A DNA stretch of 64,000 bases from Ignavibacteriales bacterium (GTDB taxonomy: Bacteria > Bacteroidota > Ignavibacteria > Ignavibacteriales > DAOSCP01): NCBI GenBank assembly GCA_035379625.1, contig DAOSVM010000001.1, positions 159,600-223,599 on the forward strand, read 5' to 3'. The position numbers and the translations under genes were made by a program. Within the stretch, counting starts at the first letter, position 1, and every line of letters starts with the position of its first letter. Below the pieces are notes generated by a model that searched no databases, was not told the origin of the DNA, and was given only the letters and a program-made list of their open reading frames with translations. Positions 26,370-49,138 of the stretch are shown piece by piece.

Positions 26370-26970
26370 TAGCTCAGACGGTGTAAGCTTAAAGCCCGTG
26401 CACCGAGCGGCGCACGGGCGGGCTTACGCCCAAAATATATTTCACTAATTAAACCATATCTTACATAATATCAACGACATACAACATTTATGCATATACC
26501 AAAATAACTATTGACTGAAAATTTTCCAAAGTAATAGCAAACTTAAAGTATTAAAATATTTTCGTAATTACGATATAATTGTATTTTTCGATATATTGAC
26601 TTTTCTAAAAATATATTTGTATTTACAATATAATTGTATATACGATATATCAATAATCTTTAATAATATATTTGTAAAGACAATATAATTGATTTTACGA
26701 TATAATAGAAAATGCAATTATATTATAAAAAAAATCGCATCAAATATAAAAATTTGAAAGACTAGATATTAGTTTTGTCAAGAGAAATATTTATTGTGAA
26801 ACACACCATCAGACCTGCGTTCAGACGCTGCATCTAGGAAGTTGTGGAATTATGAAACCGTAAGCTACACTTTGTAAGGTGATAAAGAAAAGATTTTTAG
26901 CGGGCCTTCGGCCCGCTGCCCCTTGCGGCTTTCCACAAGCAGCAAGGGGCTAAGCTTATACCGTCTGAGC
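26370..26970 (+). repeat. Full copy 1 of a non-coding MITE-like structured repeat (module A on the left, module B on the right)
   Basis: Left terminus is TAGCTCAGACGGTGTAAGC (26370-26388). Right terminus is GCTTATACCGTCTGAGC (26954-26970), its reverse complement with 1 mismatch. Module A hairpin is at 26394-26419 plus GGGCG-N6-CGCCC. Module B hairpins are GCCCCTTGC/GCAAGGGGC (26918-26950) and AGCGGGCC-TTCG-GGCCCGCT (26899-26917). The core aligns with copies 2 and 3 in reverse complement. No ORF of 60 aa or more. Confidence 0.85.
26556..26727 (+). repeat. Phased iteron array inside copy 1 (3 x 55-bp units plus one offset palindrome)
   Basis: ATAT(A/T)TTTGT/CGT unit starts at 26556, 26611 and 26666. 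Palindromes are TACGATATAATTGTA (26569), TACAATATAATTGTA (26624) and GACAATATAATTGAT (26679), exactly 55 bp apart. A fourth motif with a flipped centre, TGCAATTATATTATA, sits at 26713 (+34). A CGATATA box lies about 20 bp after each palindrome. Confidence 0.85.
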
Positions 26971-27011
26971 CCAGAGATAGAATATTTTTTTTTTTAATAG
27001 AGACTTTATTT

Positions 27012-28010
27012 TTATTTGATTAAAATTTTTGCATAAACCGGGAGGTGATCGCTATATCCGCCGATATATCTTTTGCCTTCGAAGGTTCTGATTGGTAATC
27101 CTTCTGAATCAACATTTTTGCCAGTATACATATTAAAGGATGGGCAATCATATTGGAACTTATTGCTTTCAATTAAGTTAGAGGATACAATAATTTGGTC
27201 GAGCATATTCCATTCGTCGTCAAAGTAGTGTGAACCTTCATCATTATCTGCTTTTTCCCAAGATAAATTGTATAATTGTTTTGGTTGAGGTTTATCTTTA
27301 GAGCATATAAAAGGTTTAGCTTGTAAATATTTCATTATCGATTCATTTTTAGGGGTATCATTAAAGTCGCCCATTATTATTATGTTAGCATTAGGGTTAT
27401 AGCTAAGGATGTAATCAACTCTTTTTTTCAAAGTAGATGCTGCGGTATTTCTAGCAGGCGCTGATTTTTCTTCGCCACCACGTCTAGATGGCCAGTGGTT
27501 GGCAAATACATAGAAAGTATCACCGGTTTGCTTGTGAAGTAATTTCCCCATCACAATATTTCGTGTTGGCCAATCGATTTTTACAGTATCGTCAATAAGT
27601 TCGATGAATTGGAATAAATCTTTTTTGTATAAAATACCAACGTCAACGCCTCTTCTATCGGGTGAATCTTTGTGAATGACTCCAAAGTTATATTTTTTTA
27701 AAAATTGGTCATACATTGTTAGAGTATTTAATACAGCGCGATTTTCAACCTCACAAACAGTTAAAATATCAGGAGCTTTATTATCATTCATAGCAGAAAT
27801 AATTTTTGATAATCTTACAAATTTTAAAATTAATTTTTGGTCATCCCATTTGTACATACCTTTAGGGGTAAAATCTTCATCATTTGTATTAGGGTCATCA
27901 TTTGTATCGAAGAGGTTTTCTAAATTCCATTGAGCAATAAAGATATAATTGTTTTGAGCGTAAATAGGTAAAAAAACTAAAATGGAAATTAATAAGAGTT
28001 TTTTAAGCAT
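27012..28010 (-). CDS. Secreted endonuclease/exonuclease/phosphatase (EEP) family protein
   Basis: 332 aa with a signal peptide. 'AQWNLENLFD', 'LTVCEVEN', 'ANHWPSRRGG', 'IIMGDFND' and 'SDHLPV' are hallmark EEP motifs. Confidence 0.8.
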   Translation of the reverse strand: MLKKLLLISILVFLPIYAQNNYIFIAQWNLENLFDTNDDPNTNDEDFTPKGMYKWDDQKLILKFVRLSKIISAMNDNKAPDILTVCEVENRAVLNTLTMYDQFLKKYNFGVIHKDSPDRRGVDVGILYKKDLFQFIELIDDTVKIDWPTRNIVMGKLLHKQTGDTFYVFANHWPSRRGGEEKSAPARNTAASTLKKRVDYILSYNPNANIIIMGDFNDTPKNESIMKYLQAKPFICSKDKPQPKQLYNLSWEKADNDEGSHYFDDEWNMLDQIIVSSNLIESNKFQYDCPSFNMYTGKNVDSEGLPIRTFEGKRYIGGYSDHLPVYAKILIK

Positions 28011-28073
28011 TCAAGACCTCCGATAATAAAAATTGTTTTAGATTAAAATGAATATAAGAAAAAATATTTTAAG

Positions 28074-28104
28074 AGAAAAAAAATCCTGTGTTAAAACACA
28101 GGAT
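28074..28104 (-). terminator. Rho-independent terminator after the oxidoreductase operon
   Basis: ATCCTGTGT (28083-28091) pairs with ACACAGGAT (28096-28104). On the minus strand it is followed by a T-run (the A-run 28076-28083). It lies 10 nt past the stop at 28114. Confidence 0.8.
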
Positions 28105-28113
28105 TAATTTTAA

Positions 28114-28662
28114 TTAAGCTTCCACTTTTTCGACTAATTCCATACCTTTTTTGATAGCTTCTTCATTCAGAGGAATGAGATGATGGTATCTTTCAGGTAA
28201 AACTTTTTTTAAACCTTTTAGTACATTATCAATATTAAGAATTGGTTTTAATTTAATAAAAGCTCCGAGAACGATCATATTAAGGATTTTAGTATTTTTC
28301 ATTTCAGCAGCAGTTTGAGATGCTTCTATTCCGATAATTTTTATGTCGGTTCTTTTAGGAGGATGCACAATATTAGTAGAATCATATAATAAAAGTCCGC
28401 CGGTTTTTACAGCGCTTTCGAATTTATCTAAGCTAGGTTGATTGAGAGCGATAACGGTATCGAATTTGGAAAAAATAGGAGAACTTACGGGTTCATCACT
28501 AAGGATAACAATGCAATTAGCAGTACCACCACGCATTTCAGGCCCATAAGATGGCATCCAACTAACTTCCTTATTTTCTTCAACACCAGAATAGCAAAGT
28601 ATTTGACCAAGTGATAAAACACCTTGTCCACCAAAACCAGCAATAATAATTTCTTCAGTCAT
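28114..28662 (-). CDS. 2-oxoacid:ferredoxin oxidoreductase, gamma subunit
   Basis: 182 aa. 'IIIAGFGGQGVLSLGQIL' and 'GPEMRGG' are typical of the POR/KOR/VOR gamma subunit. Last gene of a 4-gene operon. Confidence 0.85.
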   Translation of the reverse strand: MTEEIIIAGFGGQGVLSLGQILCYSGVEENKEVSWMPSYGPEMRGGTANCIVILSDEPVSSPIFSKFDTVIALNQPSLDKFESAVKTGGLLLYDSTNIVHPPKRTDIKIIGIEASQTAAEMKNTKILNMIVLGAFIKLKPILNIDNVLKGLKKVLPERYHHLIPLNEEAIKKGMELVEKVEA

Positions 28663-29495
28663 TATTTAGCCTCCTCTTTTTTAGGAACTTTAATATCGCC
28701 TAATTGGTAAAATTTCAACATGTTGTCCTGTAACCACATATTAGATTCAGTAGGTGTCATTTTCCAATTAGAAGGGCAATTTGAAACGATTTCAACAAGG
28801 CAAGTTCCTTTATTAAGTTTTTGATATTCAAAGGCATTTCTAATAGCTTTTTTAGCTTTTCGAACGTGATTAGGGGAAAAAACAGCTTGTCTAGTGACAT
28901 AATAGGTTCCTGGGAGCTGTGCAACGAGTTCAGAGATTTTTAGGGGATATCCGACAAAATTTACATCACGTCCTTCAGGGGAAGTAGTTGATTTCATTCC
29001 TGGTAAAGTTGTCGGTGCCATTTGCCCGCCAGTCATACCATAAATACCGTTGTTTATGAAAATAATAGTAATATTTTCACCACGGTTACAGGTGTGAATA
29101 GTTTCACCAGTACCAATAGCAGCAAGATCTCCATCACCTTGATAGGAAAAAACAAATTTATCGGGAAAAACTCTTTTAATTCCGGTGGCAACAGCGGAAG
29201 CACGTCCATGGGCAGCTTCGCTCCAATCAATATCAAGGTAGTTATAAGCAAAAACTGCACAACCAACAGGGGCAACACCAATTGTTTGCTCTTGAATGCC
29301 CATTTCTTCTATTACTTCAGCAATTAATTTGTGAACAGTACTATGGCCACATCCTGGGCAATAGTGAAATGGATTATCGAGTAGTACGCTTGGTTTTTGG
29401 TATACAATGTTTTCTCTTACGCAAATATCATCTTCATGATGGAGATGATCATCTGTATATAATTCCTCTTGTAGGTATAATCTTTCGTTACCCAT
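28662..29495 (-). CDS. 2-oxoacid:ferredoxin oxidoreductase, beta (TPP-binding) subunit
   Basis: 277 aa. 'CPGCGH' and 'GDGD..AIG..E..H..R.N.....I..NN..YGMTGGQ' form the TPP-binding motif. Confidence 0.9.
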   Translation of the reverse strand: MGNERLYLQEELYTDDHLHHEDDICVRENIVYQKPSVLLDNPFHYCPGCGHSTVHKLIAEVIEEMGIQEQTIGVAPVGCAVFAYNYLDIDWSEAAHGRASAVATGIKRVFPDKFVFSYQGDGDLAAIGTGETIHTCNRGENITIIFINNGIYGMTGGQMAPTTLPGMKSTTSPEGRDVNFVGYPLKISELVAQLPGTYYVTRQAVFSPNHVRKAKKAIRNAFEYQKLNKGTCLVEIVSNCPSNWKMTPTESNMWLQDNMLKFYQLGDIKVPKKEEAK

Positions 29496-29497
29496 AA

Positions 29498-30562: not shown

Positions 30563-30849
30563 TCTTTCACCATAATATTTATATCTTTAGTTACATTAGT
30601 TATTGTTGCAATATGTTCTTTATTACCATCTACTGTTTTACGATAAACTGTTATTATGCCTTCAGGGCAAACCAAAGCACAATTTGTACATCCAGTACAC
30701 TTATCATTTACTCTAACAATATAAAGATAACCTTTAGAGTTAACTTTTTTAGATAACTCTAAAGTATCTTGTGGACATGCACTGGCGCATAACTTGCAAC
30801 CTTTACATTTTTCGATATCAATAATGATATCTCCTTTGACCTTTGCCAT
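30559..30849 (-). CDS. 2-oxoacid:ferredoxin oxidoreductase, delta subunit (2x[4Fe-4S] ferredoxin)
   Basis: 96 aa with two CxxCxxCxxxCP motifs ('CKGCKLCASACP' and 'CTGCTNCALVCP'). Confidence 0.85.
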   Translation of the reverse strand: MAKVKGDIIIDIEKCKGCKLCASACPQDTLELSKKVNSKGYLYIVRVNDKCTGCTNCALVCPEGIITVYRKTVDGNKEHIATITNVTKDINIMVKE

Positions 30850-31014
30850 AACAATCCCTAATTTTATTATTGTTTATATTTTGAAATTAATAAATATTTT
30901 GATAAAAAAAAATTATTAATATTTTTTTTATCTTATATTTAAATTTAATTTAGATATTGATGTTAATCACTTTTGACAAAAATATATTAACTTATGTTTA
31001 TTTTTGTTTTAAAA

Positions 31015-31050
31015 TATAAAAAGCCGGCGAGTAAAACTACACCGGCTTTA
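31015..31050 (-). terminator. Rho-independent terminator after the Trx-TrxR gene
   Basis: AGCCGG (31022-31027) pairs with CCGGCT (31042-31047). The minus-strand read is followed by TTTTTATATTTT. It lies about 20 nt past the stop at 31068. Confidence 0.7.
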
Positions 31051-31067
31051 TTTATTCAAGGGAGATG

Positions 31068-32396: not shown

Positions 32397-32406
32397 ATTC
32401 TCCTCT

Positions 32407-33723: not shown

Positions 33724-33802
33724 TTTTTACACCCGTATGATTTTGAAATAAATAAAAAGTTACAAAAAAATATTAAAATTAATCAATAAAATATTAACAT
33801 TA

Positions 33803-33877
33803 TTTAATAAAAATGTGGATAACTTTTATATAACACCTACATCACATTGATACACAGTATGTTATAGTTATCCACAT
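33803..33877 (-). terminator. Long-stem intrinsic terminator of the MFS permease gene
   Basis: Perfect 12-bp arms ATGTGGATAACT (33813-33824) and AGTTATCCACAT (33866-33877), plus an inner ATAACA/TGTTAT pairing. The minus-strand read is followed by TTTTTATT. It lies 17 nt past the stop at 33894. Confidence 0.65.
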
Positions 33878-33893
33878 TAGGTTAATAATATGT

Positions 33894-37730: not shown

Positions 37731-38282
37731 TAGCTCAGACGGTGTAGGCATAGCCCACGTGCGGCGTTGCCGCACGTGGGCAGCGGGCCGGAACGGCCCG
37801 CTAAACTCTTCTCTTCAACACCTTACATACAGTGATGTTTTTGGGCCTAAATATTCAAATCTTTATCAATACGTACCAGTTTACAATTGGTACAATTTTT
37901 TTTATAATAAAATTGTATTTACATTTATATCGTAAAATCAATTATATTGTATTTACAAATAAATTATTAAAAATTACTGATATATCTTATATACAATTAT
38001 ATTGCAAGAACAAATATGTTATTAGAAAAGTGAATATATCGAAAAATACAATTATATCGTATACGCTAATTTTAGCAATATCTATATTATTTATTCACTT
38101 TTTTTACTTAATCTAATCTATATTAAAAAAATATATAAACAACATTTAGTTATTTAGTTAAATGTAAAAATATAAAATATATAGGTAAAAATTTATTAGA
38201 ATGTATTGGGGGAAAAATTTAGGCGTCAGCCCGCCCGTGCGCCGTACGGCGCACGGGCTTTATGCTTACACCGTCTGAGCTA
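37731..38282 (-). repeat. Full copy 2 of the MITE-like structured repeat (inverted relative to copy 1)
   Basis: TAGCTCAGACGGTGTAGGC (37731-37749) and GCTTACACCGTCTGAGCTA (38264-38282). Module B is on the left: extra hairpin CCCACGTGCGGC/GCCGCACGTGGG (37754-37780) plus AGCGGGCCG-GAA-CGGCCCGCT (37782-37802). Module A is on the right: GCCCGTGCGCC-GTAC-GGCGCACGGGC (38233-38258). The ORFs at 37832-38116 and 38219-38470 are not conserved in other copies. Confidence 0.85.
37903..38061 (-). repeat. Phased iteron array inside copy 2
   Basis: Palindromes ATCAATTATATTGTA (37937), TACAATTATATTGCA (37992) and TACAATTATATCGTA (38047) are exactly 55 bp apart. The offset motif TATAATAAAATTGTA is at 37903 (34 bp before the first). 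A degenerate in-phase site is at 37882. Confidence 0.8.
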
Positions 38283-38303
38283 ATGAAGAGTATTTTTTTA
38301 AAA

Positions 38304-38338
38304 TAAAAAAAGCAAGCTCGCTTACGCTCGCCTGCTTT
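38304..38338 (-). terminator. Rho-independent terminator of the barrel gene (inverted duplicate of 26314-26348)
   Basis: The reverse complement reads AAAGCAGGCGAGCGTAAGCGAGCTTGC followed by T7, near-identical to the terminator at 26314. It lies 20 nt past the stop at 38358. Confidence 0.7.
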
Positions 38339-38357
38339 AAATATTACAACATTATGA

Positions 38358-39737
38358 TTAAAATTTCCATCTATTACCAACTGCAAAGTTGAATTTCCTA
38401 GAACTATTTGGAGCAAACAGAGTGTATAAATCAAGTGTAGCGATATCAAGTTCCCAAACGCCAGTATCAAAACCTAAACCAAAAGCCCAATTAAAACCGT
38501 ATTTACCACCTGCAGAAAATCCTGTTCTAATATATGGTGACCATTTTGACGGAATATACCAGTCAAAACCTAATGAAAATCTTGGAATTGTGGAATTTCC
38601 CAATTCATCATTAAAACCTTGATTATAATTAAATTCTGCTAATAACCTACCGGGGATTTCCGGAATAAATTTTTGCAATTCCGTTGCAATACCTAACCTT
38701 AATGCGGTAGGTAAAGAAGTTGTAAATGCTCCAGTATATTTGCCTTTATATTTTAATGTATCTCCTAAATTCTCTGTTTGATTTTTATCAGTAAATGATG
38801 TTATAACTTTTGTACGATTAGCTTGATAAATAACAACGTTTTCCTTCCATTTAATACTTCCAATATCTGTTATTGCAAAACCAAAAAGGAAGAGATCATC
38901 TTGGCTTTTAGCTGAAAAACCTATATCGAAACCTAATCCTGTACCTGCAGGTTTTGAAAAAGGCGAAATTTTACTATCACCGTTACTACTTGTTGAATCA
39001 AAATCATATTTAATTTTAATATCTGGTGAAGTAGAGATTAATAACGAAGAATTATTTATAATTGTTGTTGTAACAATATTATTTTCATTTTTTGTAATTA
39101 CTGATAAATTAGTACTTTTTGTTTGAGAATATGCAAGGCCATTAACAAATTTCAATGAAATACCAGCAGAAATATTTTTAAGGTAATCAATTTTAATTTC
39201 AGGAATTAATCTTGAATAAGAAATATTATAATCTACAAAATATCCAGCTTTTGTATTCAAATTTTTCATAGAATAGACTTTTTGTGCATTTTCTTCATCG
39301 CCTAAAGTGAAATTATCTATTAGTAAATTGAATAAATCTGCCGGCAATGTTAAATCTGAAACTAAACGGTGATTTATTGCAAATCCAAAACTACCTATAT
39401 CTTTAGAGGGATTTATAGTAAAAGCTAAAGGGGTAAAATTTAAACCAAATTCCATTTTGGCATTATCCTTAAAGATATCCTTAAACTTTTGTTTATCACT
39501 TGCGGTAAGTGTTCTTCCTACTAGATTACCATTTCCATCATAAACACCACCAAAAAAATATTTTAATTCTTCAATTGATAAAAAGTTTCTATATAATGAA
39601 AAATTTATTGCAGGTATTATAGGAATATATAAATCTAAAGAAAAATTATTTTTTAATACAGAATCTTGAGACAAATTTGCTGGATTTTTCCCTAAGGCAT
39701 AAATACCACGAGATGAAGCTACATAAGTATTAGCCAT
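38358..39737 (-). CDS. Outer-membrane beta-barrel protein (PorV/PorQ/FadL-like); 5' end apparently frameshifted
   Basis: 459 aa as called. N-terminal 'YGMANTYVASSRGIYALGKNPANL' resembles the PorV/PorQ-family signature. Beta-strand-rich, ending 'AVGNRWKF' (terminal aromatic). The frame stays open upstream to 39806, and a signal-peptide mini-ORF lies out of frame at 39799-39840. Confidence 0.55.
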   Translation of the reverse strand: MANTYVASSRGIYALGKNPANLSQDSVLKNNFSLDLYIPIIPAINFSLYRNFLSIEELKYFFGGVYDGNGNLVGRTLTASDKQKFKDIFKDNAKMEFGLNFTPLAFTINPSKDIGSFGFAINHRLVSDLTLPADLFNLLIDNFTLGDEENAQKVYSMKNLNTKAGYFVDYNISYSRLIPEIKIDYLKNISAGISLKFVNGLAYSQTKSTNLSVITKNENNIVTTTIINNSSLLISTSPDIKIKYDFDSTSSNGDSKISPFSKPAGTGLGFDIGFSAKSQDDLFLFGFAITDIGSIKWKENVVIYQANRTKVITSFTDKNQTENLGDTLKYKGKYTGAFTTSLPTALRLGIATELQKFIPEIPGRLLAEFNYNQGFNDELGNSTIPRFSLGFDWYIPSKWSPYIRTGFSAGGKYGFNWAFGLGFDTGVWELDIATLDLYTLFAPNSSRKFNFAVGNRWKF

Positions 39738-39867
39738 ACCATAAGAAACTGGATCATATGCCCCAGATGCTCCTGCGCCATTTTGCGCATATACTATATT
39801 ATAACGTTAGCAATAATATGCTAACTAAAATTTTAGTCATCATCTTTATACCTCTTTCTAAAAATGT

Positions 39868-41922
39868 TTAAAAGTTATCAGGATTTAAATCAACATCCAT
39901 TTTTACATAACCTTTAATTTTTATGGTCTGATCTGTTGTAAATTCAACTCTTACATTATTGTTTGAGTTACTTGTCTCTAATTTAGCTTCGATTATAGCT
40001 TTGTAAGCATCAAAATACTTATCGACTTCTTTTGTAGACAACTCTTGAATAATAAATTTTTTGTATGCTTGTGTTACTTTTCCGTTATTATCTACATAAG
40101 CTGCTGGAACATACAATGAATCGCTTTTTAGTTCATTATTATTCACAGGAATATCGAATAATTTATTACCGTTTTTATCATATATGCTAACTTTCATATA
40201 AACAGCAGCTGGAATACCATTTTCAATGTCGAGAAATAATCTAACTTTTTTAATATCATTAGCTTTTTTCCTATCGTCTTGGCTTGGTGGATCTAATTTG
40301 TCTGTTGTATCTTTTAAGCTGCCTCCATTTATGCTAATTTTTAATGGTATTTCAACAGTATAACTTGGAGTAACACTATTGGTATCAGTGATAGTTACAA
40401 CTTCGTAATTTGGATTAAAAGTAGGTTTTATGTTAAAATCAATTGTTTTAATTATTTTACCACTTATACTATTAAGGAAATTTGCTAGTAAAATATTTGC
40501 AGTTGGATTGTTTTTATTAATATTTAAATTCAAATTAATTTTTTCTGTTGCTTCAGGGGAGCTGATTTGTCCTGTTATTTTAACAGGAATATTTGTCCCC
40601 ATATTAAATTTTAATTTTATTAAACTATTATCGTAGAATAAAATTTTATTAAACTCTAGATTATTTAAGTCTTTGGTTTCAAAATTATTAGATTCGCTAA
40701 TTGGGTCTAATATTGTTGGTTTTATCTGTGCCTTAACTTCTTTCAAAGTAAATTTATTAGCTTGAGATGATGCCGTAATATAATCATTTATAGATATTGT
40801 TCTATAATCATTTGAATTAGCAGATGAATCAAATTGAGCAGTAACTGAATACCTAATAAAACTTATTGCTTGAGTATTAGGATTTTGCGACCTTATTTGA
40901 TAATTATTAAAAATAAAATTAATCGTTGTTTTAGCTTTTCTTGGGACAACAATCGTTGTATCAAAATTTAAAGTTGATATAGGTGATTTATATATATCAT
41001 TAAAGTGAATTTTAATATTTGCTGATAAATCTAATTTATTGTCAATATCGATTTTAAGACTACCGTTTTTTATAATAGCTGAATAAACTTTTAATGAGTC
41101 ATTTGCATCAAATTTTATGGAATCACTATTAACTATTGGGGCTTGTCCAGGTATTATAACACTTCCATCTTTAATGTAGATATAACTTTCTTTAATTACA
41201 ATTTTTGCTGAGTATGCTGGCGTTATAAATGGGCCTGTTGATTGTGTCGACGAAATGGTTGCCGAGAATTTTATATCTTTTTTAATGACAGCATTTTGAA
41301 TTAGAGGGATTTGTAATTCTTTTGTTGTTTGTGGAGCAATATCTACATTTTGGTTATAATTAGCAATATTTCCACTATTATCAGAATTTTTAAGTACTAT
41401 ATTAGATATTGTTAAATTAACTCCAGAATTTAAAGGGAAATTATTAGTAATACTTAAGATTATTGAACCATTTTTTATTGTTGCATAATTTATCTCACTA
41501 ATACTTGGGGAGCTCATTTCTTCTGTACCAGTTACCGCTGGGAAAAAAGGAACATTTTGGCCAGGCCCATATCCAGGTGCCCATTGGTAAGCTATTGTAT
41601 TTTCTTGACGTGAAATTTTTGCTTTAAATTCATCTTTTTTAAGAGTTGTTGAGGAACTACTTGGATCACTTGCTATTTTATCACCGATCGTAATTTTGGA
41701 GAGCGTTTTTGTCTGCCTAAAAATCAAAAGATTATTACTACTTGATTTTGCAATATTGGTTGTATCTTTTTTTATTGCATCCCATAGCGTATAAGATTTA
41801 TCAACTATTGGAATTGTTACTCCTTCATATGGTACAATCGGGGCCTTATATTCACTAGGTAAATCAATACAACCATAAAAAGTTAGTAAAAATAGAATAT
41901 AAAAATACTTAATCTTTTTCAT
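39868..41922 (-). CDS. Large hypothetical lipoprotein (partner of the downstream barrel)
   Basis: Start set at ATG 41922 (MKKIKYFYILFLLTFYGC, lipobox FYGC) with a GGAGA SD 9 nt upstream; the ORF track starts at 41970. About 684 aa, Ser/Thr/Asn/Ile-rich, beta-rich, with no recognisable domain. Confidence 0.6.
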   Translation of the reverse strand: MKKIKYFYILFLLTFYGCIDLPSEYKAPIVPYEGVTIPIVDKSYTLWDAIKKDTTNIAKSSSNNLLIFRQTKTLSKITIGDKIASDPSSSSTTLKKDEFKAKISRQENTIAYQWAPGYGPGQNVPFFPAVTGTEEMSSPSISEINYATIKNGSIILSITNNFPLNSGVNLTISNIVLKNSDNSGNIANYNQNVDIAPQTTKELQIPLIQNAVIKKDIKFSATISSTQSTGPFITPAYSAKIVIKESYIYIKDGSVIIPGQAPIVNSDSIKFDANDSLKVYSAIIKNGSLKIDIDNKLDLSANIKIHFNDIYKSPISTLNFDTTIVVPRKAKTTINFIFNNYQIRSQNPNTQAISFIRYSVTAQFDSSANSNDYRTISINDYITASSQANKFTLKEVKAQIKPTILDPISESNNFETKDLNNLEFNKILFYDNSLIKLKFNMGTNIPVKITGQISSPEATEKINLNLNINKNNPTANILLANFLNSISGKIIKTIDFNIKPTFNPNYEVVTITDTNSVTPSYTVEIPLKISINGGSLKDTTDKLDPPSQDDRKKANDIKKVRLFLDIENGIPAAVYMKVSIYDKNGNKLFDIPVNNNELKSDSLYVPAAYVDNNGKVTQAYKKFIIQELSTKEVDKYFDAYKAIIEAKLETSNSNNNVRVEFTTDQTIKIKGYVKMDVDLNPDNF

Positions 41923-42096
41923 AAATAAATTCTCCATTCTTTTCTTTTTAATATAATTTTTAATTAACAAAAAACAAATTTATGTATGTAAAATAATTAT
42001 TAATTATTTGTTCTTTTAATATAAAATAATTTTACATTTGAAATATGTGTAATATTCTTTATATTTATATTCTTGAATTATTTAAAAGGTTATATA

Positions 42097-42852
42097 ATGC
42101 ACAAAAATACAAAAGTCATCATATATTTAACAACTATATTTATTTCAATGTTATTAGTTAGTTGTTCATCTACTAAAGATTTAACAAAATTAACTCCATC
42201 TCAAAGATTACAAAAAGCAATTGATAATTATAATAACAAAGATTATGAAGAAGCAGTAGCATCTTTTCAAAGTATTTTAATTGAATTTGCAGGTAGAGAA
42301 GTTATTGATAGTGCTCAATTTTATTTAGCTATGTCAAGGTATATGAAAGAGGAATATTTATTAGCCTCTTATGAATTTAGTAAGCTCATTCAAAATATGC
42401 CATTAAGTCAATTTGTACCACTCTCTCAATATATGCTTGCTGATTGTTACTTTCAGCTATCTCCTCCTATGCCACTTGACCAAAAATATACTAAAAAAGC
42501 AATAGAAGAATTTCAAGCTTTTATTGATTTTTATCCTAATCATCCAAAAGTTGATGAAGCAACAAAAAAAATTAAATCATTAAATGAAAAACTTGCTTAT
42601 AAAGATTATAATGCTGCTTACATTTATGAAAGAATGGAAAACTATAATGCAGCTATTTTCTTTTATTCACAAGTGATTGAAAATTATCATGATACAAAAT
42701 ATGCACCATTAGCTCTTTATAATAGAATTAAAGTTGAATTGGTAAAAAATAGAAAAGCCGAAGCAAAAAATGATATAGCTAATTTCAAAGAAAAATATCC
42801 TACTCACGAGTTATATAATAAAATACTGGAGATTGAACAAAGTTTGAATTAA
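42097..42852 (+). CDS. bamD: Outer membrane protein assembly factor BamD
   Basis: Lipoprotein signal 'MLLVSCSS'. TPR-like 'YNNKDYEEAVASFQSIL', 'AQFYLAMSRY', 'FQAFIDFYPNHPKVDEA' and 'YIYERMENYNAAIFFYSQVIENY..TKYAPLALY' match the BamD/YfiO pattern. ATG 42097 is preferred over TTG 42073. Confidence 0.8.
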   Translation: MHKNTKVIIYLTTIFISMLLVSCSSTKDLTKLTPSQRLQKAIDNYNNKDYEEAVASFQSILIEFAGREVIDSAQFYLAMSRYMKEEYLLASYEFSKLIQNMPLSQFVPLSQYMLADCYFQLSPPMPLDQKYTKKAIEEFQAFIDFYPNHPKVDEATKKIKSLNEKLAYKDYNAAYIYERMENYNAAIFFYSQVIENYHDTKYAPLALYNRIKVELVKNRKAEAKNDIANFKEKYPTHELYNKILEIEQSLN

Positions 42853-44381
42853 TGAGAATATTTTTTTTTACATATTTTATCTTAGTTTTATCAATTTACC
42901 CAAAAGATTTAGATTCTCTTTTTAATCAATTTCAAAAAGTATTTTACTTAAATTTTTTTACAGAACAAATTAGCTTTCGTAATAAATGTTCTTTCCAAAC
43001 TATATATGAAGTTAAAAAAAATTTTCACCTTTTTAACTCTCACCAACAAGAATATATTCAAGTATCATTATATAATGTAACTAATACTGATACATTTATA
43101 ATTTCTCCTAAAAAATACTTTCGCATTAATTTTTTCAAAGATGCTCTTAAGAAACCTAAGTATAATCTTGATAGCCTTGCAATAATATTAGACTCTGTCT
43201 ATTCTTTTGAAGTAATTTATTTAAATTTTCCGAAGCCAAAAGGCATAAAAGATGATTTTTATGATATTTTTATAACTCCTATATCAGATTATGGATATAC
43301 TGAATTAATAACAGAAAATCCAATCCGTACACAAATAGTTCTTTCAAATGATTTCTCAAATTATTATACTAATGGATTGGATGCTGTAAAAGTAACTCTA
43401 GCTCATGAATTCCATCATGCTATACAATTTCATTATAAATTACCAGATAAAGATATATTTTTTTATGAGATGACTTCTACTTCAATGGAAGAATTTGTAT
43501 TTCCAGAAGTCAATGATTATATCAATTACATTAAATCTTATTTCAAGAATTTAAATACTAATTTTAAGTTCGGTGATGGTTATTCTCAAGCCATATGGAA
43601 CTTATTTTTATATAAACAATTAAAGACTCATAATTTTATAAAATTGCAATGGGAATACTTTAAAATTAATGATGCATTGATCGCAATAAATAAATCATTA
43701 GAAGATTATGGAACAAATTTTAGTTCAATGTTTGGTTTATTCTCAAAAAGTATAAGCAATAAATTCAGATATAAATATTACGATGATGCTAATCTTTTTC
43801 CAAATATTTCATATTCACAAATTATCTCTAATGATGCTGGTCAATCTATAGTTAGTGATATTACTTATTGTGCAATTAAATATTTTGGGGTTATAGATAA
43901 TTCTGATACTATTAGTTTTGTTATATCAAATGGTAATTTTGTGGCTGCAAACAACGCTCTTAGTGATAACGAAGGAATTGGGATGAAAATAATATTATCA
44001 AACTACTCCACTAATAATTCATTAAAGTTAAATGATGCTTTACATTTAATTATACATTTTAATAAACAAGATAGCGGGAATCAAGTTAATATAATTGGGG
44101 ATATGCAAAGCAATTCCAATTATATAACAATTTTCCCAAATCCATTAAAGTTAAACCAAACAAATTTCTTAAATTTAAATTTTAGCAATAATGTTAGCGA
44201 GTTAAAAATTTATATTTATGATATAAAAAGCAAAAATATTTTCAAGCATCAAGTTAAATTTTTAGATAATAAGAATAATTTTGTCTTTCAAATTCCAGAG
44301 GATATACCCACAGGAATATATTTTGTTTATATCGAAACAAATGAGTTTAAGAAAATAGAAAAATTAGCCATTATAAAATAA
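42852..44381 (+). CDS. Secreted HExxH-motif protein (putative zinc metalloprotease) with T9SS C-terminal domain
   Basis: 509 aa with a signal peptide. 'VTLAHEFHHAIQF' (HExxH). C-terminal 'ITIFPNPLKLNQTNFLNLNF...GIYFVYIETNEFKKIEKLAIIK' is CTD-like. Its ATG overlaps the bamD stop (TAATG). Confidence 0.5.
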   Translation: MRIFFFTYFILVLSIYPKDLDSLFNQFQKVFYLNFFTEQISFRNKCSFQTIYEVKKNFHLFNSHQQEYIQVSLYNVTNTDTFIISPKKYFRINFFKDALKKPKYNLDSLAIILDSVYSFEVIYLNFPKPKGIKDDFYDIFITPISDYGYTELITENPIRTQIVLSNDFSNYYTNGLDAVKVTLAHEFHHAIQFHYKLPDKDIFFYEMTSTSMEEFVFPEVNDYINYIKSYFKNLNTNFKFGDGYSQAIWNLFLYKQLKTHNFIKLQWEYFKINDALIAINKSLEDYGTNFSSMFGLFSKSISNKFRYKYYDDANLFPNISYSQIISNDAGQSIVSDITYCAIKYFGVIDNSDTISFVISNGNFVAANNALSDNEGIGMKIILSNYSTNNSLKLNDALHLIIHFNKQDSGNQVNIIGDMQSNSNYITIFPNPLKLNQTNFLNLNFSNNVSELKIYIYDIKSKNIFKHQVKFLDNKNNFVFQIPEDIPTGIYFVYIETNEFKKIEKLAIIK

Positions 44382-44392
44382 TAAAAAGGTGA

Positions 44393-45346
44393 ATTATTAA
44401 AGGGCAAATTATCAAAATAGAAAGTATAAATTATTTTGTTAAAAGTGAAGGTAAAATATATAATTGCTTCTTAAAAGGGAGTTTCAAGAAAAAATACGAA
44501 TATAAAAAAAACAAGCTATTCACAACAGATATTGCAGTTGTTGGAGATTTTGTTGAATTTGAATTGAATAATGAAGGTTATGGATTAATATATAATATTT
44601 TGGAAAGAAAAAATTTTGTATCTCGTAAGGCACCACGTATTAAAGGAGCAACTTATAGGGGCTCAAGATTAGAACAAATAATTGCAGCAAATATAGATTT
44701 AAGTCTAATTGTTCAAAGTGCCGATTTCCCAAAATTCAATAATCGAACTTTAGATAGATATATTGTATCCGCTCACGCTTGCAAAATTGATTTTATAATT
44801 TTAATTAATAAAATTGATTTAGTTGATGAAGAATTTTTAAATTATTGGGTAAATCTCTACAAAAAAATTGGTTATAAAGTTTATCCTGTTTCAGCAAAAG
44901 ATGGAGTAGGTTTTGATGAATTAAAAGAAATTATAAAAGGAAATGTTAATTTAGTTTGGGGGCCAAGTGGCGTTGGCAAAAGTTCAATTATTAATTTTTT
45001 ATTCCCTTCTGTAAATTTAAAGGTAGGTGAAGTTTCAAATTATACTTCCAAAGGGAAGCACACCACAGTTACAAGTCAATTACTCGAATTTGAGAATGAT
45101 ACATATCTTATTGATACTCCAGGTATTAGAGAAATTGAACCTTTTGGTGTTTCTAAAATTGATTTAGGACATTATTTTGATGAATTTAAAGAATTCATTC
45201 CCGATTGTAAATTTAATACCTGCACCCATAACCATGAACCAGGATGTGCAGTTATAAAAGCTTTTGAAGAAGGTAAAATTTCTGAAGAAAGATATTACAG
45301 TTATTTGAATATATTAGCTACTATCGAGGAAGATGTTTTTATTTAA
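44393..45346 (+). CDS. rsgA: Ribosome small-subunit-dependent GTPase A (start codon non-canonical or frameshifted)
   Basis: Circularly permuted GTPase motifs: 'ILINKIDL' (NKxD), 'GPSGVGKSS' (P-loop), 'DTPG', and the zinc knuckle 'CKFNTCTHNHEPGC'. The OB-fold N-terminus (IIKGQIIKIESINYFVKSEGKIYNCFLKG...) is in frame from 44393. The first ATG/GTG/TTG in frame is the TTG at 44564. Confidence 0.8.
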   Translation: MIKGQIIKIESINYFVKSEGKIYNCFLKGSFKKKYEYKKNKLFTTDIAVVGDFVEFELNNEGYGLIYNILERKNFVSRKAPRIKGATYRGSRLEQIIAANIDLSLIVQSADFPKFNNRTLDRYIVSAHACKIDFIILINKIDLVDEEFLNYWVNLYKKIGYKVYPVSAKDGVGFDELKEIIKGNVNLVWGPSGVGKSSIINFLFPSVNLKVGEVSNYTSKGKHTTVTSQLLEFENDTYLIDTPGIREIEPFGVSKIDLGHYFDEFKEFIPDCKFNTCTHNHEPGCAVIKAFEEGKISEERYYSYLNILATIEEDVFI

Positions 45347-45458
45347 GCTTTAAAATTATTTTTTATTATAATAAATTTAATTTGCATTAATTATTTATTT
45401 TCTTTATTTTCAATTTAGTACCATAATATTTCATAATATTAATTAATTAGGAGTAGAA

Positions 45459-48400
45459 ATGAAAAGAAAAATATTATTTTTCTTTGTAGTATTATTAACA
45501 ATTGTTTTTGGACAGCAAAAGCCACCTATCTATATAGCTTTTCATTGGCATATGCATCAACCAATTTATTGGCCTTACGAAACAGTTTGGCAAACACAGC
45601 AACGAGGCGCTTATAGTTATAGCGTTGTAGATATTTTTAATCAAAGAATCGGACCTTATACTAATTGGCCTAAAGATGCTATCTACAAAGGAATAAACAA
45701 CAATTTAGAGCATTTAGGTGCACAAGTAAGTTTAAGTGGTTCATTAATAGAAAATTTGAATAATTTAGAAAGTGGTGGAAATGGAAATTTTAACGGTTGG
45801 AAAAATCATTGGAAAGATATAGCCACCAAGAAAACATCAAAGAATAATCCGAGAATTGATTTAGTTGCTTTTGGTTATCATCACCCATTGATGGGATTAA
45901 TTGATTATGAAGATATAAGAAAACAAATTCAACAACATAGAGAAGCTATAACAACTAATTTTGGAATAAGTTATTCAAAAGGAATATTTCCACCAGAAAA
46001 TGCTTTCACGCCAAGAATGATTCCTGCATTAGTTGCAGAAGGTTTACAATGGGTAATGGTAGATAATGTTCATTTTGATAGAGCAACTGAGGGCTATCCA
46101 TTTAATACAGGTGGAAATTTGTATGAACCAAATAAAGCTGATATTCAAAATCCTAATCCAAATGATTGGGTACAACTAAATGGATTATGGGCTCCGACAA
46201 AAGTTTCAGCAGGCTGGGGTCACAAACCACATTACATAAAATATGTCGATCCCAATACTGGGCAAGAATATAAAATGATAGCTGTACCAACAAGTAGATA
46301 TTTAGGGAATGAAGATGGCAGAGGTGGTTTTGGCGCATTAAACTATGAACAAGTAATGAGTCAATTAGAGTTTGCAAATAATGATCCAGCTCATCCTATT
46401 CTTGTTGTTTTACATCACGATGGCGATAATTATGGCGGTGGAAGTTCAGGCTATTATGGCAGTAATTTCGATAATTTTGTAAATTGGCTAAAAGCTAACC
46501 CTTCTAGATTTGTTTGTACAACTATTCAAGATTATTTGGATATGTTCCCACCAGATCCAAACGATGTTATTTGGGTTGAGGATGGTAGCTGGTCAGGTGC
46601 TGATAATGGCGATCCAGAATTCTTAAAATGGAATGGCGATCCAGGTAGTGACGGCTACAGTCCCGATAGAAATAGCTGGGGAATTGTAACGGCGGCAAAA
46701 AATTATGTCTTTACTGCTGATAAGATTAATCCTAATGATAATAATACAAAATTAGCATGGAAATACTTAACTGTTTCACAAACAAGCTGTTATTGGTATT
46801 GGGATGGCTCTGAAAACGGAGTATGGGATTCTCACCCTGCGAGAGCTTGTAATGAAGCTGTAAAGTATGCTAAAATGGTGACTGATGGCGGAAATGATAT
46901 TGTTGGGCCTACAATTTATATCCCACAACGAGAACCTTATAATCCAGGTTCTACCGAGTGGAATATTTCGAAACCTTCAGATTTTACCGTTTGGACTTAC
47001 GTTTATGATTTAAGTGGATTGAATTCAGTAAAATTGAAATATAGAGTAAACAATGATAACAATTATAAGTTAACTAATGATAATTTTACTTATTCTGGTG
47101 GCTCTACTGTTGGCGCTTGGCAAGAAGTTACAATGAATTCCAAAACAATACAATCAAAAACAAATCCACTTCCATCTTACAAAGCCGATGAATTTAGTGC
47201 GATAATTTCAGGAATAAAAAATAAATTAGTTGATTATTACGTTGAGGCTGTAGATTCTAAAGGAAATGTAACTAAAAGTCCAATTAAGCATGTTTGGGTT
47301 GGTGATGGTTCAGGTACAACAGGCGGCGGGACAACATCTTCGGTAATTTGGACTCCAACTAATCCAACAAAAAATGATGAAATTGAAATTAAAGTTATTT
47401 CGTCTAAAAGTGCTAAATTACATTGGGGAGTAAATTCCGTTAATAAAAATTGGACTACCCCAAATCAACTTTACTGGCCTTCAAACACAACATTATTTAA
47501 TAATATTGGACCTGCTGTTGAAAGCCCTTTTACTAAAGTTGGTGATACTTTAAAAATAAAATTAGGACCTTTCAACAATCCTGCACAAGTTGTTAATTCT
47601 TTAAATTTCGTTATTCATTTTGATGATAATACTTGGGATAACAATAACAATAACGATTATAATATTCCAATAAGCGGAAATAATAGCGGTGATACTACAA
47701 AACCTACTATTACATTCAATATGGACGGCAACCTTGATGAAAATACTAATATAGCTGCTCAAAATTCTGATGATAAATTACATTATATTTATTCCAACGG
47801 ATTACTCTATCTAGCTACAAAATCAGCTCAATCAAAAGGTAATGATGCTTTCATCTTTGTGTCAAAAACAAATCCTACTGCATTAGTTAATGCTCCTTGG
47901 GCAAAAACTGGAAAAGTTGGTACATATGATATATTTTTAGGAAATGAAAGTACAAACAATTGGTCTGGCTGGTTCGATAAAAACGGAAATTTATTAAACT
48001 CAATCAAACAAAAATCTGGACAATATTTAGAAGCTGTTATAGATTTGAAAAATGATTTAGGAATTACTAATCCAGAAAAAATTTATGTAGCAGTTGGTTA
48101 TTATAATACTAACGATAATGGAAAATTAGTTTTACAAATTCCACAGGGCAACTCAAATGATGATATTGATATAAACGAATTAGCAGAAATTTCATTGCAA
48201 ACTGTAACCAGTAATGAAAACACCATAAAGTTAAAAGATTATTTATTATTATCAAATTACCCTAATCCTTTCAATCCATCAACTTTAATAACTTATTATT
48301 TACCAACTGCTGGCAATGTAAAATTAGATATTTATAATTGTTTAGGCGAAAAAATCGAAAGTTTGGTAAATACATATCAATATCCTGGCAATTATACTGT

Positions 48401-48497
48401 AAAATATGATGCTAAAAATTTAGTTTCTGGTATTTACTACGTAGTTTTAAACTTAGATAATAAGATAAAAACGCATAAAATTATGCTAATGAAATAA
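45459..48497 (+). CDS. Secreted glycoside hydrolase family 57-like enzyme with C-terminal accessory domains and T9SS CTD
   Basis: 1012 aa with a signal peptide. 'FHWHMHQPIYWPYE' (GH57 region I 'HQP') and 'AFGYHHPLMGLI' (GH57 region II-like). A Gly/Thr linker 'GDGSGTTGGGTTSS' follows. C-terminal 'LSNYPNPFNPSTLITYYLP...GIYYVVL' is a T9SS CTD. Confidence 0.7.
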   Translation: MKRKILFFFVVLLTIVFGQQKPPIYIAFHWHMHQPIYWPYETVWQTQQRGAYSYSVVDIFNQRIGPYTNWPKDAIYKGINNNLEHLGAQVSLSGSLIENLNNLESGGNGNFNGWKNHWKDIATKKTSKNNPRIDLVAFGYHHPLMGLIDYEDIRKQIQQHREAITTNFGISYSKGIFPPENAFTPRMIPALVAEGLQWVMVDNVHFDRATEGYPFNTGGNLYEPNKADIQNPNPNDWVQLNGLWAPTKVSAGWGHKPHYIKYVDPNTGQEYKMIAVPTSRYLGNEDGRGGFGALNYEQVMSQLEFANNDPAHPILVVLHHDGDNYGGGSSGYYGSNFDNFVNWLKANPSRFVCTTIQDYLDMFPPDPNDVIWVEDGSWSGADNGDPEFLKWNGDPGSDGYSPDRNSWGIVTAAKNYVFTADKINPNDNNTKLAWKYLTVSQTSCYWYWDGSENGVWDSHPARACNEAVKYAKMVTDGGNDIVGPTIYIPQREPYNPGSTEWNISKPSDFTVWTYVYDLSGLNSVKLKYRVNNDNNYKLTNDNFTYSGGSTVGAWQEVTMNSKTIQSKTNPLPSYKADEFSAIISGIKNKLVDYYVEAVDSKGNVTKSPIKHVWVGDGSGTTGGGTTSSVIWTPTNPTKNDEIEIKVISSKSAKLHWGVNSVNKNWTTPNQLYWPSNTTLFNNIGPAVESPFTKVGDTLKIKLGPFNNPAQVVNSLNFVIHFDDNTWDNNNNNDYNIPISGNNSGDTTKPTITFNMDGNLDENTNIAAQNSDDKLHYIYSNGLLYLATKSAQSKGNDAFIFVSKTNPTALVNAPWAKTGKVGTYDIFLGNESTNNWSGWFDKNGNLLNSIKQKSGQYLEAVIDLKNDLGITNPEKIYVAVGYYNTNDNGKLVLQIPQGNSNDDIDINELAEISLQTVTSNENTIKLKDYLLLSNYPNPFNPSTLITYYLPTAGNVKLDIYNCLGEKIESLVNTYQYPGNYTVKYDAKNLVSGIYYVVLNLDNKIKTHKIMLMK

Positions 48498-48515
48498 ATT
48501 TATTATTGCAAAAAG

Positions 48516-48549
48516 AAGGCAAGGAAGCAATGCAACCTTGCCTTTTTTT
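48516..48549 (+). terminator. Rho-independent terminator of the GH57-like gene
   Basis: AAGGCAAGG (48516-48524) pairs with CCTTGCCTT (48536-48544), followed by a T-run to 48549. It starts 19 nt after the stop. Confidence 0.8.
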
Positions 48550-48568
48550 ATTTTAAAACAATTCTCAT

Positions 48569-49138
48569 TAGCTCGGACAGTATAAGCATAGCAGCGGGCC
48601 GGAACGGCCCGCTAAAAATCTTTTCATCATCACCTTACCAAGTGTAGCTCAACGGTTTCATAATTCCACATCTCCCAAAATTCAGTGCAGATTGTGTGTT
48701 TGACTGAAAAATTTTTTTTTGTCAAAGCTAAAAATTAGCCTTAAAATTTTATGTTTATTGCGGATTTCTATATAATATAATTGTATTTACAATAATATCA
48801 TACAACCAATTATATTGTATATACAAAAATATTTTTTAAAATTGTAACTATATCGTGTATGCAATTATATTGTAAATACGAATATATTTTTAAAAATTGC
48901 GAATATATCGTAATTTTTAATATATAGGAATAACGATATTACGTATACACTTTTTTTTACATAATTTAATCAATCTTAAAAAAAATTTTAAACAATATTT
49001 AGTTATTTAGCTAAATGTAAAAATATATAAAATATTGATAAAAAATCTAATGTAAGATAGTAGATGGAAAATTTTTGGGCGTTAGCCCGCCCGTGCGCCG
49101 CAAGGCGCACGGGCTTTATGCTTACACCGTCTGAGCTA
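48569..49138 (-). repeat. Full copy 3 of the MITE-like structured repeat (same orientation as copy 2)
   Basis: TAGCTCGGACAGTATAAGC (48569-48587) and GCTTACACCGTCTGAGCTA (49120-49138). Module B is AGCGGGCCGGAACGGCCCGCT (about 48592-48612), with no extra hairpin. The conserved block 'GGTTTCATAATTCCAC' equals the reverse complement of copy 1's 'GTGGAATTATGAAACC'. Module A is GCCCGTGCGCC-GCAA-GGCGCACGGGC (49089-49114). No ORF of 60 aa or more. Confidence 0.85.
48771..48874 (-). repeat. Phased iteron array inside copy 3
   Basis: The offset motif TATAATATAATTGTA is at 48771. Palindromes ACCAATTATATTGTA (48805) and TGCAATTATATTGTA (48860) are 55 bp apart. The next in-phase site (48915) is degenerate. 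Confidence 0.75.

Follow-up and report, generated by a model that had tools for sequence, protein, structure and literature searches.

We analysed a 64,000-nucleotide stretch of DNA (hereafter the window), which has a G+C content of 27.2% and whose genes are Ignavibacteriales-like: the top homologues of its proteins come from Ignavibacteria or Ignavibacteriales, and identical proteins are encoded on further contigs, among them a 208-kb metagenome contig. Its gene content includes type IX secretion system (T9SS) sorting domains, pyruvate:ferredoxin oxidoreductase, sigma-54 activators and a polysaccharide cluster. Between these genes lie three full copies of a repeat element, at 26370-26972 (+), 37731-38282 (-) and 48569-49138 (-), and two solo ends of the same element, at 60739-60804 (-) and 63670-63745 (+). 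A full copy is bounded by terminal inverted repeats (TIRs), carries G+C-rich hairpins beside them and encloses an AT-rich core. The family to which these copies belong is lineage-restricted, occurring in a few low-GC Ignavibacteriales from metagenomes, and is apparently undescribed. On balance, and with modest confidence, we favour an affinity with the miniature transposable elements that end in inverted repeats (MITEs).

Copies of the element in the window

The three blocks are homologous over their full length, from end to end (72-77% identity, blastn), and copy 1 lies in the opposite orientation to the other two, both as a preliminary sequence-only reading had claimed. A family profile (nhmmer) matches them with E-values of 1e-114 to 7e-141 and, across the window, picks out just these three full copies plus two solo A-end modules; the latter are the two truncated copies of the sequence-only reading and lie beyond the interval 26370-49138 to which it had assigned the family. 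The core pattern of the TIR has eight matches in the window against 0.03 expected by chance, and the window TIRs agree with the consensus at 16-19 of 19 bases. The 19-bp terminal inverted repeats are thus present at both ends of the copies, yet they are imperfect and not exact reverse complements as had been thought: the right end of copy 1 (26954-26972, GGGCTCAGACGGTATAAGC) and the left end of copy 3 (TAGCTCGGACAGTATAAGC) each match at 16 of 19 positions, and the left end of copy 2 at 18 of 19. Copy 1 had also been taken to end at 26970 with a TA, whereas the actual end is at 26972, where there is no TA.

Copy 1 reads A-to-B on the forward strand and was delimited by blastn, the profile and a hairpin scan. 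Its A end consists of a TIR (26370-26388) and hairpins A1 (26394-26419) and A2 (26420-31), its core array (26553-26704) holds 2.8 units of 55 bp, with a pair of 17-mers in each and TAnnTTTG boxes at 26612 and 26667, and its B end comprises hairpins B2 (26899-26917) and B1 (26918-26950) and the imperfect TIR. Abutting the A-end TIR is an outer module (26312-26369, +), here termed the T-module, with the terminator hairpin AGGCGAGCGTAAGCGAGCTTGC, a T-run and ATTTTAAAAAATACTTTTCAT. Copy 2, delimited by blastn and the profile, has its B end on the left and its A end on the right; it comprises a TIR (37731-37749), hairpins B1' (37753-37781) and B2 (37782-37802), the 55-bp array (37926-38062), hairpin A1 (38233-38258) and a second TIR (38264-38282), beyond which a T-module of the copy 1 type (38283-38337, -) occupies the space between the A-end TIR and the stop of a DUF5723 gene. 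Homology of copy 2 in blastn extends to 38345. Copy 3, delimited in the same way and lying in the same orientation, is preceded on its left by a T-module of the second hairpin type (48517-48568, +; AAGGCAAGGAAGCAATGCAACCTTGCC, T-run, ATTTTAAAACAATTCTCAT) and consists of the imperfect TIR (48569-48587), hairpin B2 (48593-48613) with no B1 hairpin, the array (48807-48911), hairpin A1 (49089-49114) and a TIR (49120-49138). Copies 2 and 3 bound a six-gene segment of 10.3 kb (38283-48568). The solo A-end module at 60739-60804, 9 nt past the stop of an adenylate-cyclase gene, has its TIR at 60786-60804 and a hairpin at 60757-60778; that at 63670-63745 (TIR 63670-63688, hairpin 63694-63719) lies between the stop of Obg (about 63781) and the start of FecCD (63640).

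No mobility gene was found alongside these copies. A Pfam domain scan of 43 window open reading frames (ORFs) found no transposase, integrase or reverse transcriptase domain, in agreement with the sequence-only reading, and no Y1 transposase or REP-associated tyrosine transposase (RAYT); three ORFs outside that scan (54022-58872) have orthologues annotated as metabolic enzymes. Nor do the copies encode a product of their own: no start-to-stop ORF is shared between them, as had been stated before, neither repeat period (55 or 17 bp) is divisible by three, and ORFs of at least 100 amino acids are absent from all 58 paired elements assembled below. Candidates for a conserved small ORF proved to be only stop-free translations of conserved AT-rich DNA and were rejected.

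Structure of the element ends

The TIR is 19-22 bp long and imperfect, with the consensus TAGCTCRGACRGTRTAAGCWTA. Among 48 distinct full elements, 13 of its first 19 positions are invariant and the common variation is all A/G, an invariance maintained despite an overall identity between copies of about 72-91%. At 144 of 148 distinct ends a strong hairpin begins 1-7 nt inside the TIR; these hairpins have 110 different sequences, and most of their stems start GCCC. The end modules had been judged by eye to exceed 65% G+C and measure 61-70%, against 19-23% in the cores. Of the 14 strict perfect G+C-containing hairpins of the window, 10 are in, or directly abut, an element.

The hairpins of modules A and B are present as first described. 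At the A end, GCCCGTGCGCC-loop-GGCGCACGGGC is followed by GGGC-TWAM-GCCC and then AAAA. At the B end, hairpin B1 is CCCCTTGCRGC...GCYGCAAGGGG or CCCACGTGCGGC..., and hairpin B2 is AGCGGGCC...GGCCCGCT followed by AAAAATCTTTT; further types include the terminator-like CCGCACAAC...GTTGTGCGG with a T-run. The TIR-adjacent hairpins are flanked inward by A4-5 and then a T-run, and outward by TTWWGCTTA, a layout outside the rule of the terminator scan. Pairing in these stems is conserved beyond their sequence. Paired cells make up 97.6% of the B1 stem, where pairing is kept through compensatory changes, with 56 double-changed cells observed against 15.4 in shuffles (0 of 500 shuffles reached 56), and it falls to 33-51% when the partners are slid by 1-3 columns. 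G-U combinations (8 cells) show no excess over A-C combinations (5 cells), and so the constraint on the stem is not strand-specific.

The sequence-only reading had noted weak conservation in the flanks, which is real and reflects the optional T-module. This module lies outside the TIR, where a terminator hairpin leads into about seven consecutive T and these into ATTTTAAAAAATACTCTTCAT; about a quarter of ends across all loci carry it, including the left end of copy 1, the right end of copy 2 and the left end of copy 3. Its hairpin has two stereotyped types: one occurs 14 times, 12 of them with a TIR following, and the other 6 times, 4 of them with a TIR following. The canonical layout of an intrinsic terminator (stem plus U-tract) is seen in the T-module, and that of copy 1 is the only canonical terminator-like site between 26200 and 27100 in the terminator scan. 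Terminators of flanking genes (for example in loci L056, L065, L069, L072, L083 and L116) belong to a few stereotyped stem families, AGCTCTC...GAGAGCT, GGCTGCC...GGCAGCC and GACTGTC...GGCAGTC, which suggests that terminator hairpins in these genomes may themselves be homogenised or repeated.

A tRNA origin of the TIR was considered, TAGCTCAG being D-arm-like, and was set aside: ARAGORN gives no tRNA in the window and no complementary GAGC arm was seen on reading the sequence.

The AT-rich core

In the main subfamily the interior contains 2-3 tandem units of 55 bp, each with a pair of the 17-mer TTGTAnnnACRATATA, and a typical copy has six 17-mers at spacings of 17/38/17/38/17, all directed A-to-B. 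The 17-mer is essentially private to the family, having (at no more than one mismatch) 124 matches inside elements against 2 elsewhere in 848 kb. Conservation along the element is uneven, in that the leader and the post-array region vary far more than the TIR, hairpins and 17-mers do.

The array also holds TAnnTTTG or TATAAT-TG boxes, all oriented A-to-B. TAnnTTTG is the -7 box of the Bacteroidetes sigma-A (PMC9723704), and the RpoD motif of Chlorobi is similar (10.1101/172254). Because the box is found both within the 55-bp units and upstream of most window operons, it is plausible that the array is an internal promoter cluster; less favourable to this, an exact TAnnTTTG is missing from copy 2 and the TTG at -33 does not stand at the expected spacing. 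Judged by its sequence, the array looks like either Bacteroidetes-type promoter boxes or protein-binding iterons. No DnaA box lies inside an element, and hence the cores do not resemble replication origins.

The family beyond the window

Further copies outside the 64 kb were found by scanning metagenome contigs for the exact 22-mer TAGCTCAGACGGTRTAAGCWTA, which 79 loci match, none of them overlapping the window outside the repeats. Together the window and the 79 loci contain 170 TIR matches, which form 58 inverted pairs of 280-805 bp (mostly 470-620 bp, median about 535 bp) and leave 54 unpaired ends. The latter form a continuum, from near-complete elements with one decayed TIR, via end modules of 75-110 bp, to bare TIRs. 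By our tally, about 1.5 Mb of contigs from metagenome Ga0116168 alone contain 62 exact matches, or at least one copy per 25-30 kb. Some copies in other organisms are nearer to the window copies (up to 91% identity over about 390 bp) than the window copies are to one another. A second type of interior, with GCCACC...GGTGGC hairpins (L094, L103, L130), is bounded by the same TIR, and in the loops of these hairpins the CGATATA core of the 17-mer recurs in an inverted arrangement.

A pattern scan of a 596-Gb genome collection used GCTCAGACGGTRTARGC, a query short enough for chance matches. It gave at least 52 matches, nearly all of them single chance matches in unrelated taxa, and among the matches listed an Ignavibacteriales genome (DAOSCP01) was alone in having several, including one full element.

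So far as Rfam, the phage and plasmid collections and a full-text search of the literature go, the family is not a described one, as the sequence-only reading had proposed. At the gathering threshold, the only Rfam match in the window is a SAM-II riboswitch at 53846-53920; in a permissive run on copy 1 the best matches reached 17.6-20.1 bits against thresholds of 39-64, and a match of the FopS small RNA family to the T-module (18.8 bits, threshold 56) was treated as chance. No homologue of the element was found in the phage and plasmid collections (blastn) or in three pattern scans of viral contigs. The sole database similarities are to AT-rich tandem repeats in Borrelia and in a Lactococcus plasmid spacer, at 71-78% identity over no more than 22% of the query, and are probably convergent.

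At L109 a 2-kb stretch (2442-4495) lies between a bare TIR and a full B-end module, and includes an ORF of 256 amino acids with about four internal repeats (EEY..L..LG....F.VD) and no Pfam match; the stretch could be cargo, or the two ends could merely be unrelated solo ends. A search for a recurrent TIR-adjacent ORF as a candidate transposase gave only short partial alignments to large neighbouring proteins, probably through a shared C-terminal domain.

Placement and flanking sequence

Copies are intergenic and mostly downstream of genes. For 41 copies both neighbours could be called: they converge on the element in 21 cases and diverge from it in 3. Of all flanking genes, 72% are directed towards the element, with no difference between the A and B sides. 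Genes pointing away number 11 on the B side and 13 on the A side; with no preference for the B side, the element does not serve as a portable promoter. Neighbouring genes often stop only 7-22 nt short of the TIR and have no terminator of their own, and elsewhere the T-run of a terminator most often ends about 6 nt before the TIR. At L111 a bare solo TIR (2577-2595) was observed about 500 bp upstream of the start of the 16S rRNA gene, and is absent from the matching, unalignable region of the related L124 (about 6575).

The 7 nt outside the TIR have a T-rich, nearly G-free consensus, which is the same on both sides in inverted orientation around the TA. Of the 48 full elements compared, all have the TA at the tip of the A end and 39 have it at that of the B end. 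A TA target duplication of the IS630 type, as had been suggested, is no more than compatible with these tips and T-rich flanks: TA is palindromic and thus indistinguishable from the TIR itself, 9 of 48 B ends have none, and neither a partner transposase nor an empty site at base resolution was recovered.

A second, unrelated small TIR element (183-303 bp, with tips CCCAAATTAT...ATAATTTGGG) occurs at L067 6377-6559, L106 410-592, L088 9945-10247 and L130 5999-6297. In L067 and L106 it is nested within copies of the main element and flanked by 5-bp duplications (ATTAA or TTTAA), and window copy 2 represents the uninterrupted empty site for the L067 insertion.

Rearrangements and patchy distribution

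Relatives of the window were reached through the proteins that flank the copies. In two of them (L146/L147, with orthologues 49-89% identical to those of the window) the six genes between copies 2 and 3 have their order and orientation reversed and the outer genes are unchanged, the junctions being 88 bp and 159 bp long and without an element. Both arrangements are backed by independent assemblies. Copies 2 and 3 have the same orientation, and so homologous recombination between whole elements cannot explain the inversion; the A-end TIR and T-module of copy 2, however, face the B-end TIR and T-module of copy 3 as inverted repeats.

The other copies also coincide with differences between the window and its relatives. 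Obg and FecCD overlap in L151 (from the same sample as L146), with the cyclase gene next, and it is the solo end at 63670 that separates this pair in the window; at the solo end at 60739 the cyclase gene's other neighbour differs in the relative, which makes it a synteny breakpoint. At the site of copy 1, L140 has a methyltransferase gene instead, in otherwise conserved synteny. Neither end nor whole-element profiles (nhmmer) found the element in 105 kb of relatives at 43-88% protein identity, compared with five occurrences in the 64-kb window. Three breakpoints all fall on the 4 element-occupied junctions among 18 comparable ones, for which we calculate a chance of 4/816, or about 0.005.

Between L022 (1700-2300) and L120 (1-600), the aligned part of an element and about 130 bp leading to a tRNA gene are 100% identical, although over 6.3 kb the mean identity of the two loci is only about 78%. 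A recent exchange between the two organisms, or a chimeric contig end at the repeat, could be the cause.

Comparison with known elements

The closest published analogue is BrickBuilt of Porphyromonas gingivalis, which is gene-less, strictly intergenic and 84-991 nt long, with many copies lacking one end (PMC4596501). The two are alike in their FCB host, in an organisation of leader, internal tandem direct repeats and tail between short inverted-repeat ends, in target duplications that are inconsistent or absent, and in the promoter elements they carry, which in our family are putative. They differ in that the TIRs of BrickBuilt are of IS5 type, 12 nt long (GAGACCTTTGCA) and match resident ISPg elements, with no sequence relationship to ours, and in that its repeats are contiguous 23-nt units of variable number (23-nt or 41-nt in BrickBuilt/MITEPgRS). 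Here, by contrast, the TIR is 19-22 nt long without a known parent insertion sequence (IS), a G+C hairpin stands beside nearly every TIR, six 17-mers have a fixed 17/38/17 spacing and some ends have a terminator outside the TIR. Since TIR and repeat unit are different sequences, the family does not belong to BrickBuilt/MITEPgRS.

Prokaryotic MITEs have TIRs of about 4-30 bp, no transposase, a length typically below 500 bp and flanking direct repeats, and decaying MITE families also grade from full to truncated copies (PMC10969869). Our family shares with MITEs such as Chunjie, QMITE1/2 and Correia its TIRs, AT-richness, placement in intergenic regions or at gene 3' ends, copy numbers of tens to hundreds, stem-loops and an association with genome plasticity. 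TIRs, lack of coding capacity, AT-rich intergenic placement, copy number and a truncation gradient are all found here; the differences are a median length of about 535 bp rather than the usual <500 bp, sequence conserved outside the TIR at some ends, and the lack of both a demonstrable direct-repeat target duplication and an identified parent IS. As these last two are not established, we say that the family works like a MITE or mosaic extragenic element, its membership being unproven. MITEs of the IS630/Tc1-mariner type resemble it in having TA tips and an AT-rich, roughly symmetrical flank around the TA, but here the TA is inseparable from the TIR and missing at 9 of 48 B ends, and no DDE transposase with these TIRs was found.

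The bacterial interspersed mosaic elements and repetitive extragenic palindromes (BIME/REP) of enterobacteria and the BOX and SPRITE elements of pneumococci are likewise G+C-rich extragenic palindromes in inverted pairs that form modular mosaics after gene 3' ends, and SPRITE has a terminator-like module. These, however, are 30-300 bp long, without a linear 19-nt TIR or a 300-400 bp AT-rich core of 17-mers, and REPs are mobilised by RAYT, which was not seen here. Membership of the REP/BIME class (a palindrome of 20-40 nt with a 5' GTAG-type motif and a RAYT) does not fit hairpins that come in 110 variants beside a linear TIR that is the conserved part. Nor is the element an iteron origin or plasmid centromere, for although direct 17-mers are present there is no Rep or Par gene nearby and the copies run to dozens.

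The repeats upstream of ospD in Borrelia burgdorferi share a 17-bp period and an TATAATTG-N9-TATAATTG pattern directly upstream of a gene, but form a single contiguous locus in an unrelated phylum, without TIRs or hairpins. At 71-73% over about 150 bp of AT-rich repeat, this similarity is most likely convergent. The locus in question (L149 1501-1650, Borreliella burgdorferi lp38) has about nine contiguous 17-bp repeats (TTGATATTAAAATATAA). The ospD repeats are reported to be reiterated promoter elements.

Interpretation

The sequence-only reading had left three options, a MITE-like element, a structured RNA or a protein-binding locus, and the first is now the best supported, a single structured RNA being unsupported. 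In its favour are the many copies in several related genomes, the occurrence of one TIR with different interiors, the absence from 105 kb of closer relatives, and the inversion, the breakpoint and the insertion within an operon. We therefore lean, somewhat beyond an even judgement, towards a non-autonomous, MITE-like modular element that is moved in trans, is tolerated downstream of genes and provides dispersed homology for rearrangement. A protein-binding or promoter role of the array is compatible with such mobility.

On this account a transposase that recognises the TIR would move copies in trans, now or formerly, inserting them at a TA whose surroundings are T-rich and roughly palindromic. 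Transcription into or out of the element would be stopped by its end hairpins and by the outer terminator, and because of this copies could persist at gene 3' ends, where an element end may stand in for the gene's terminator if none is present or replace it. Within the element, the 17-mer array might act as an internal promoter cluster or a protein-binding array. The two oppositely oriented TIR-plus-hairpin ends of each element would offer inverted homology between any two copies, which could account for an inversion between the directly oriented copies 2 and 3: recombination, or transposase action, at their facing ends would invert exactly the block observed.

Several observations weigh against this interpretation. 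The conserved T-module is the one that least fits a simple transposon model, since sequence conserved outside the TIR at so many ends is unexpected for a strict transposon terminus and calls for a preferred target that was used repeatedly, or else for a composite element of greater length. No direct repeats longer than 2 bp were seen on reading the flanks, and the clean 5-bp duplications of the nested element indicate that duplications are detectable in these genomes. A filled site and its empty counterpart were not recovered at base resolution, since every genome without a copy has diverged too far for the junction to be aligned. Among the 79 loci there is no autonomous partner with these TIRs, so that transposition is inferred only. 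The divergence of copies within a genome is about 10-28%, and two or more sites are common to two genomes whose DNA is about 78-92% identical there, from which it follows that most copies are old; their conserved ends and array may reflect selection at the level of the host. The inversion, moreover, could have arisen in the lineage of the relatives, outgroup synteny not being conserved.

In another model, which we regard as improbable yet the most serious competitor, the host maintains the element as an intergenic cassette for transcription, and any mobility it may once have had is lost. Promoters in the array would fire A-to-B to produce an RNA of 150-300 nt ending at the B2/B1 hairpins, and the end hairpins and T-modules would be terminators or insulators for this core transcript and for convergent flanking genes. 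The uniform A-to-B direction of the TAnnTTTG boxes, the same motif preceding window operons, argues for this, as do the superior conservation of TIR, hairpins and 17-mers over the leader and post-array region, the compensatory changes that maintain hairpin pairing, the many flanking genes whose only terminator would be the element end and the promoter activity shown experimentally for the comparable BrickBuilt (PMC4596501). Yet the promoter reading is weakened by copy 2, with no exact TAnnTTTG, and by the spacing of the -33 TTG, and B-side genes point away from the element no more often than A-side genes. The end hairpins have no adjacent U-tract, only the T-module being flagged by the terminator scan, and a cassette of this kind leaves unexplained the conserved TIR, its presence around unrelated interiors and the patchy distribution. 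If attention is instead given to the strict geometry of the 17-mers (17 bp within a pair, 55 bp between pairs, in one direction, across copies only about 75% identical), to their near exclusivity to the elements (124 versus 2) and to the inverted recurrence of CGATATA in the hairpin loops of the second subfamily, the element might be a DNA-level protein-binding array, with the six 17-mers as iterons or as a centromere-like or nucleoid-protein site. It would then spread more than 1000 binding sites per genome on a repeat. We think this distinctly unlikely, as no candidate binding protein, Rep or Par gene adjoins any copy, dozens of copies per genome exclude an origin or plasmid-type centromere, and the only database similarities, to AT-rich tandem repeats (Borrelia ospD, Lactococcus), are probably convergent.

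The inversion bounded exactly by copies 2 and 3, whose facing ends are mutually inverted, could also be taken to mean that TIR-plus-hairpin units are sites for a site-specific recombinase or invertase, marking programmed and reversible inversions. That is more doubtful again: no recombinase gene lies in the window or adjoins copies in other loci, the inverted block holds six ordinary housekeeping-type genes without a promoter or variable surface gene, the examined contigs of this species all have the window arrangement around copy 2, and most copies sit between convergent genes with no apparent switch. Least credible, to the point of near dismissal, is that the whole 0.5-kb unit is one large structured non-coding RNA with its ends paired through the TIRs. 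Terminal complementarity of 19 bp and co-varying G+C-rich stems would suit such a molecule, but where the two TIRs differ, positions 11 and 14 speak for one strand and positions 2 and 7 for the other, the stems have no strand-specific signature (G-U 8 versus A-C 5 cells), the interior is tandemly repetitive at 19-23% G+C, no Rfam family matches at threshold, and both solo ends and alternative interiors exist. Finally, and as a long shot, the elements may be a domesticated genome-wide architecture of insulated cassettes, each an ordered array of six binding or promoter sites, all in the same direction, between hairpin and terminator walls, placed by the dozens to hundreds per chromosome at operon boundaries. 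Were this so, the cassettes would recruit RNA polymerase or a DNA-binding protein and thereby organise transcription units or the nucleoid, and the TIR-plus-hairpin unit would be the recognition signal of a novel machinery.

Should the MITE-like interpretation be right, it adds an abundant, apparently undescribed repeat family in an uncultured Ignavibacteriales lineage from metagenomes, although not a new principle of biology. One unit here unites features that usually occur in separate types of element, namely a TIR, hairpins of variable sequence, a fixed 17-mer array and optional terminators. It would provide a test case for gene-less elements that are tolerated through transcription insulation and then co-opted as promoters or binding arrays, and its patchy presence prompts one to ask whether a non-autonomous element has spread horizontally within a single habitat. 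In practical terms, short-read assemblies break at element copies, and the element marks inversion and synteny breakpoints, making it useful for assessing the quality of metagenome-assembled genomes and for strain typing.

Other features of the window

An AT-rich intergenic region at 33724-33893 contains two perfect inverted DnaA boxes, at 33814-33822 (-) and 33868-33876 (+), adjoining a 21-bp tandem repeat (33753-33812) and near a switch of gene orientation and of the sign of GC skew (about 35-44 kb). It could be part of a replication origin or a DnaA-regulated promoter. The SAM-II (SAM_alpha) riboswitch on the forward strand scores 46.9 bits against a threshold of 36 and lies upstream of a Cys/Met-metabolism gene (54022-55308), with TAnnTTTG boxes before it at 53709 and 53782; according to Rfam it is a riboswitch of Alpha-proteobacteria, yet the host is Ignavibacteriales-like. 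At 3602-8755 and 8773-16126, a gingipain-like Peptidase_C25 protein of 1717 amino acids adjoins a glycosyltransferase and polysaccharide-synthesis cluster (18-25% GC), and the region may be a variable surface-structure island.

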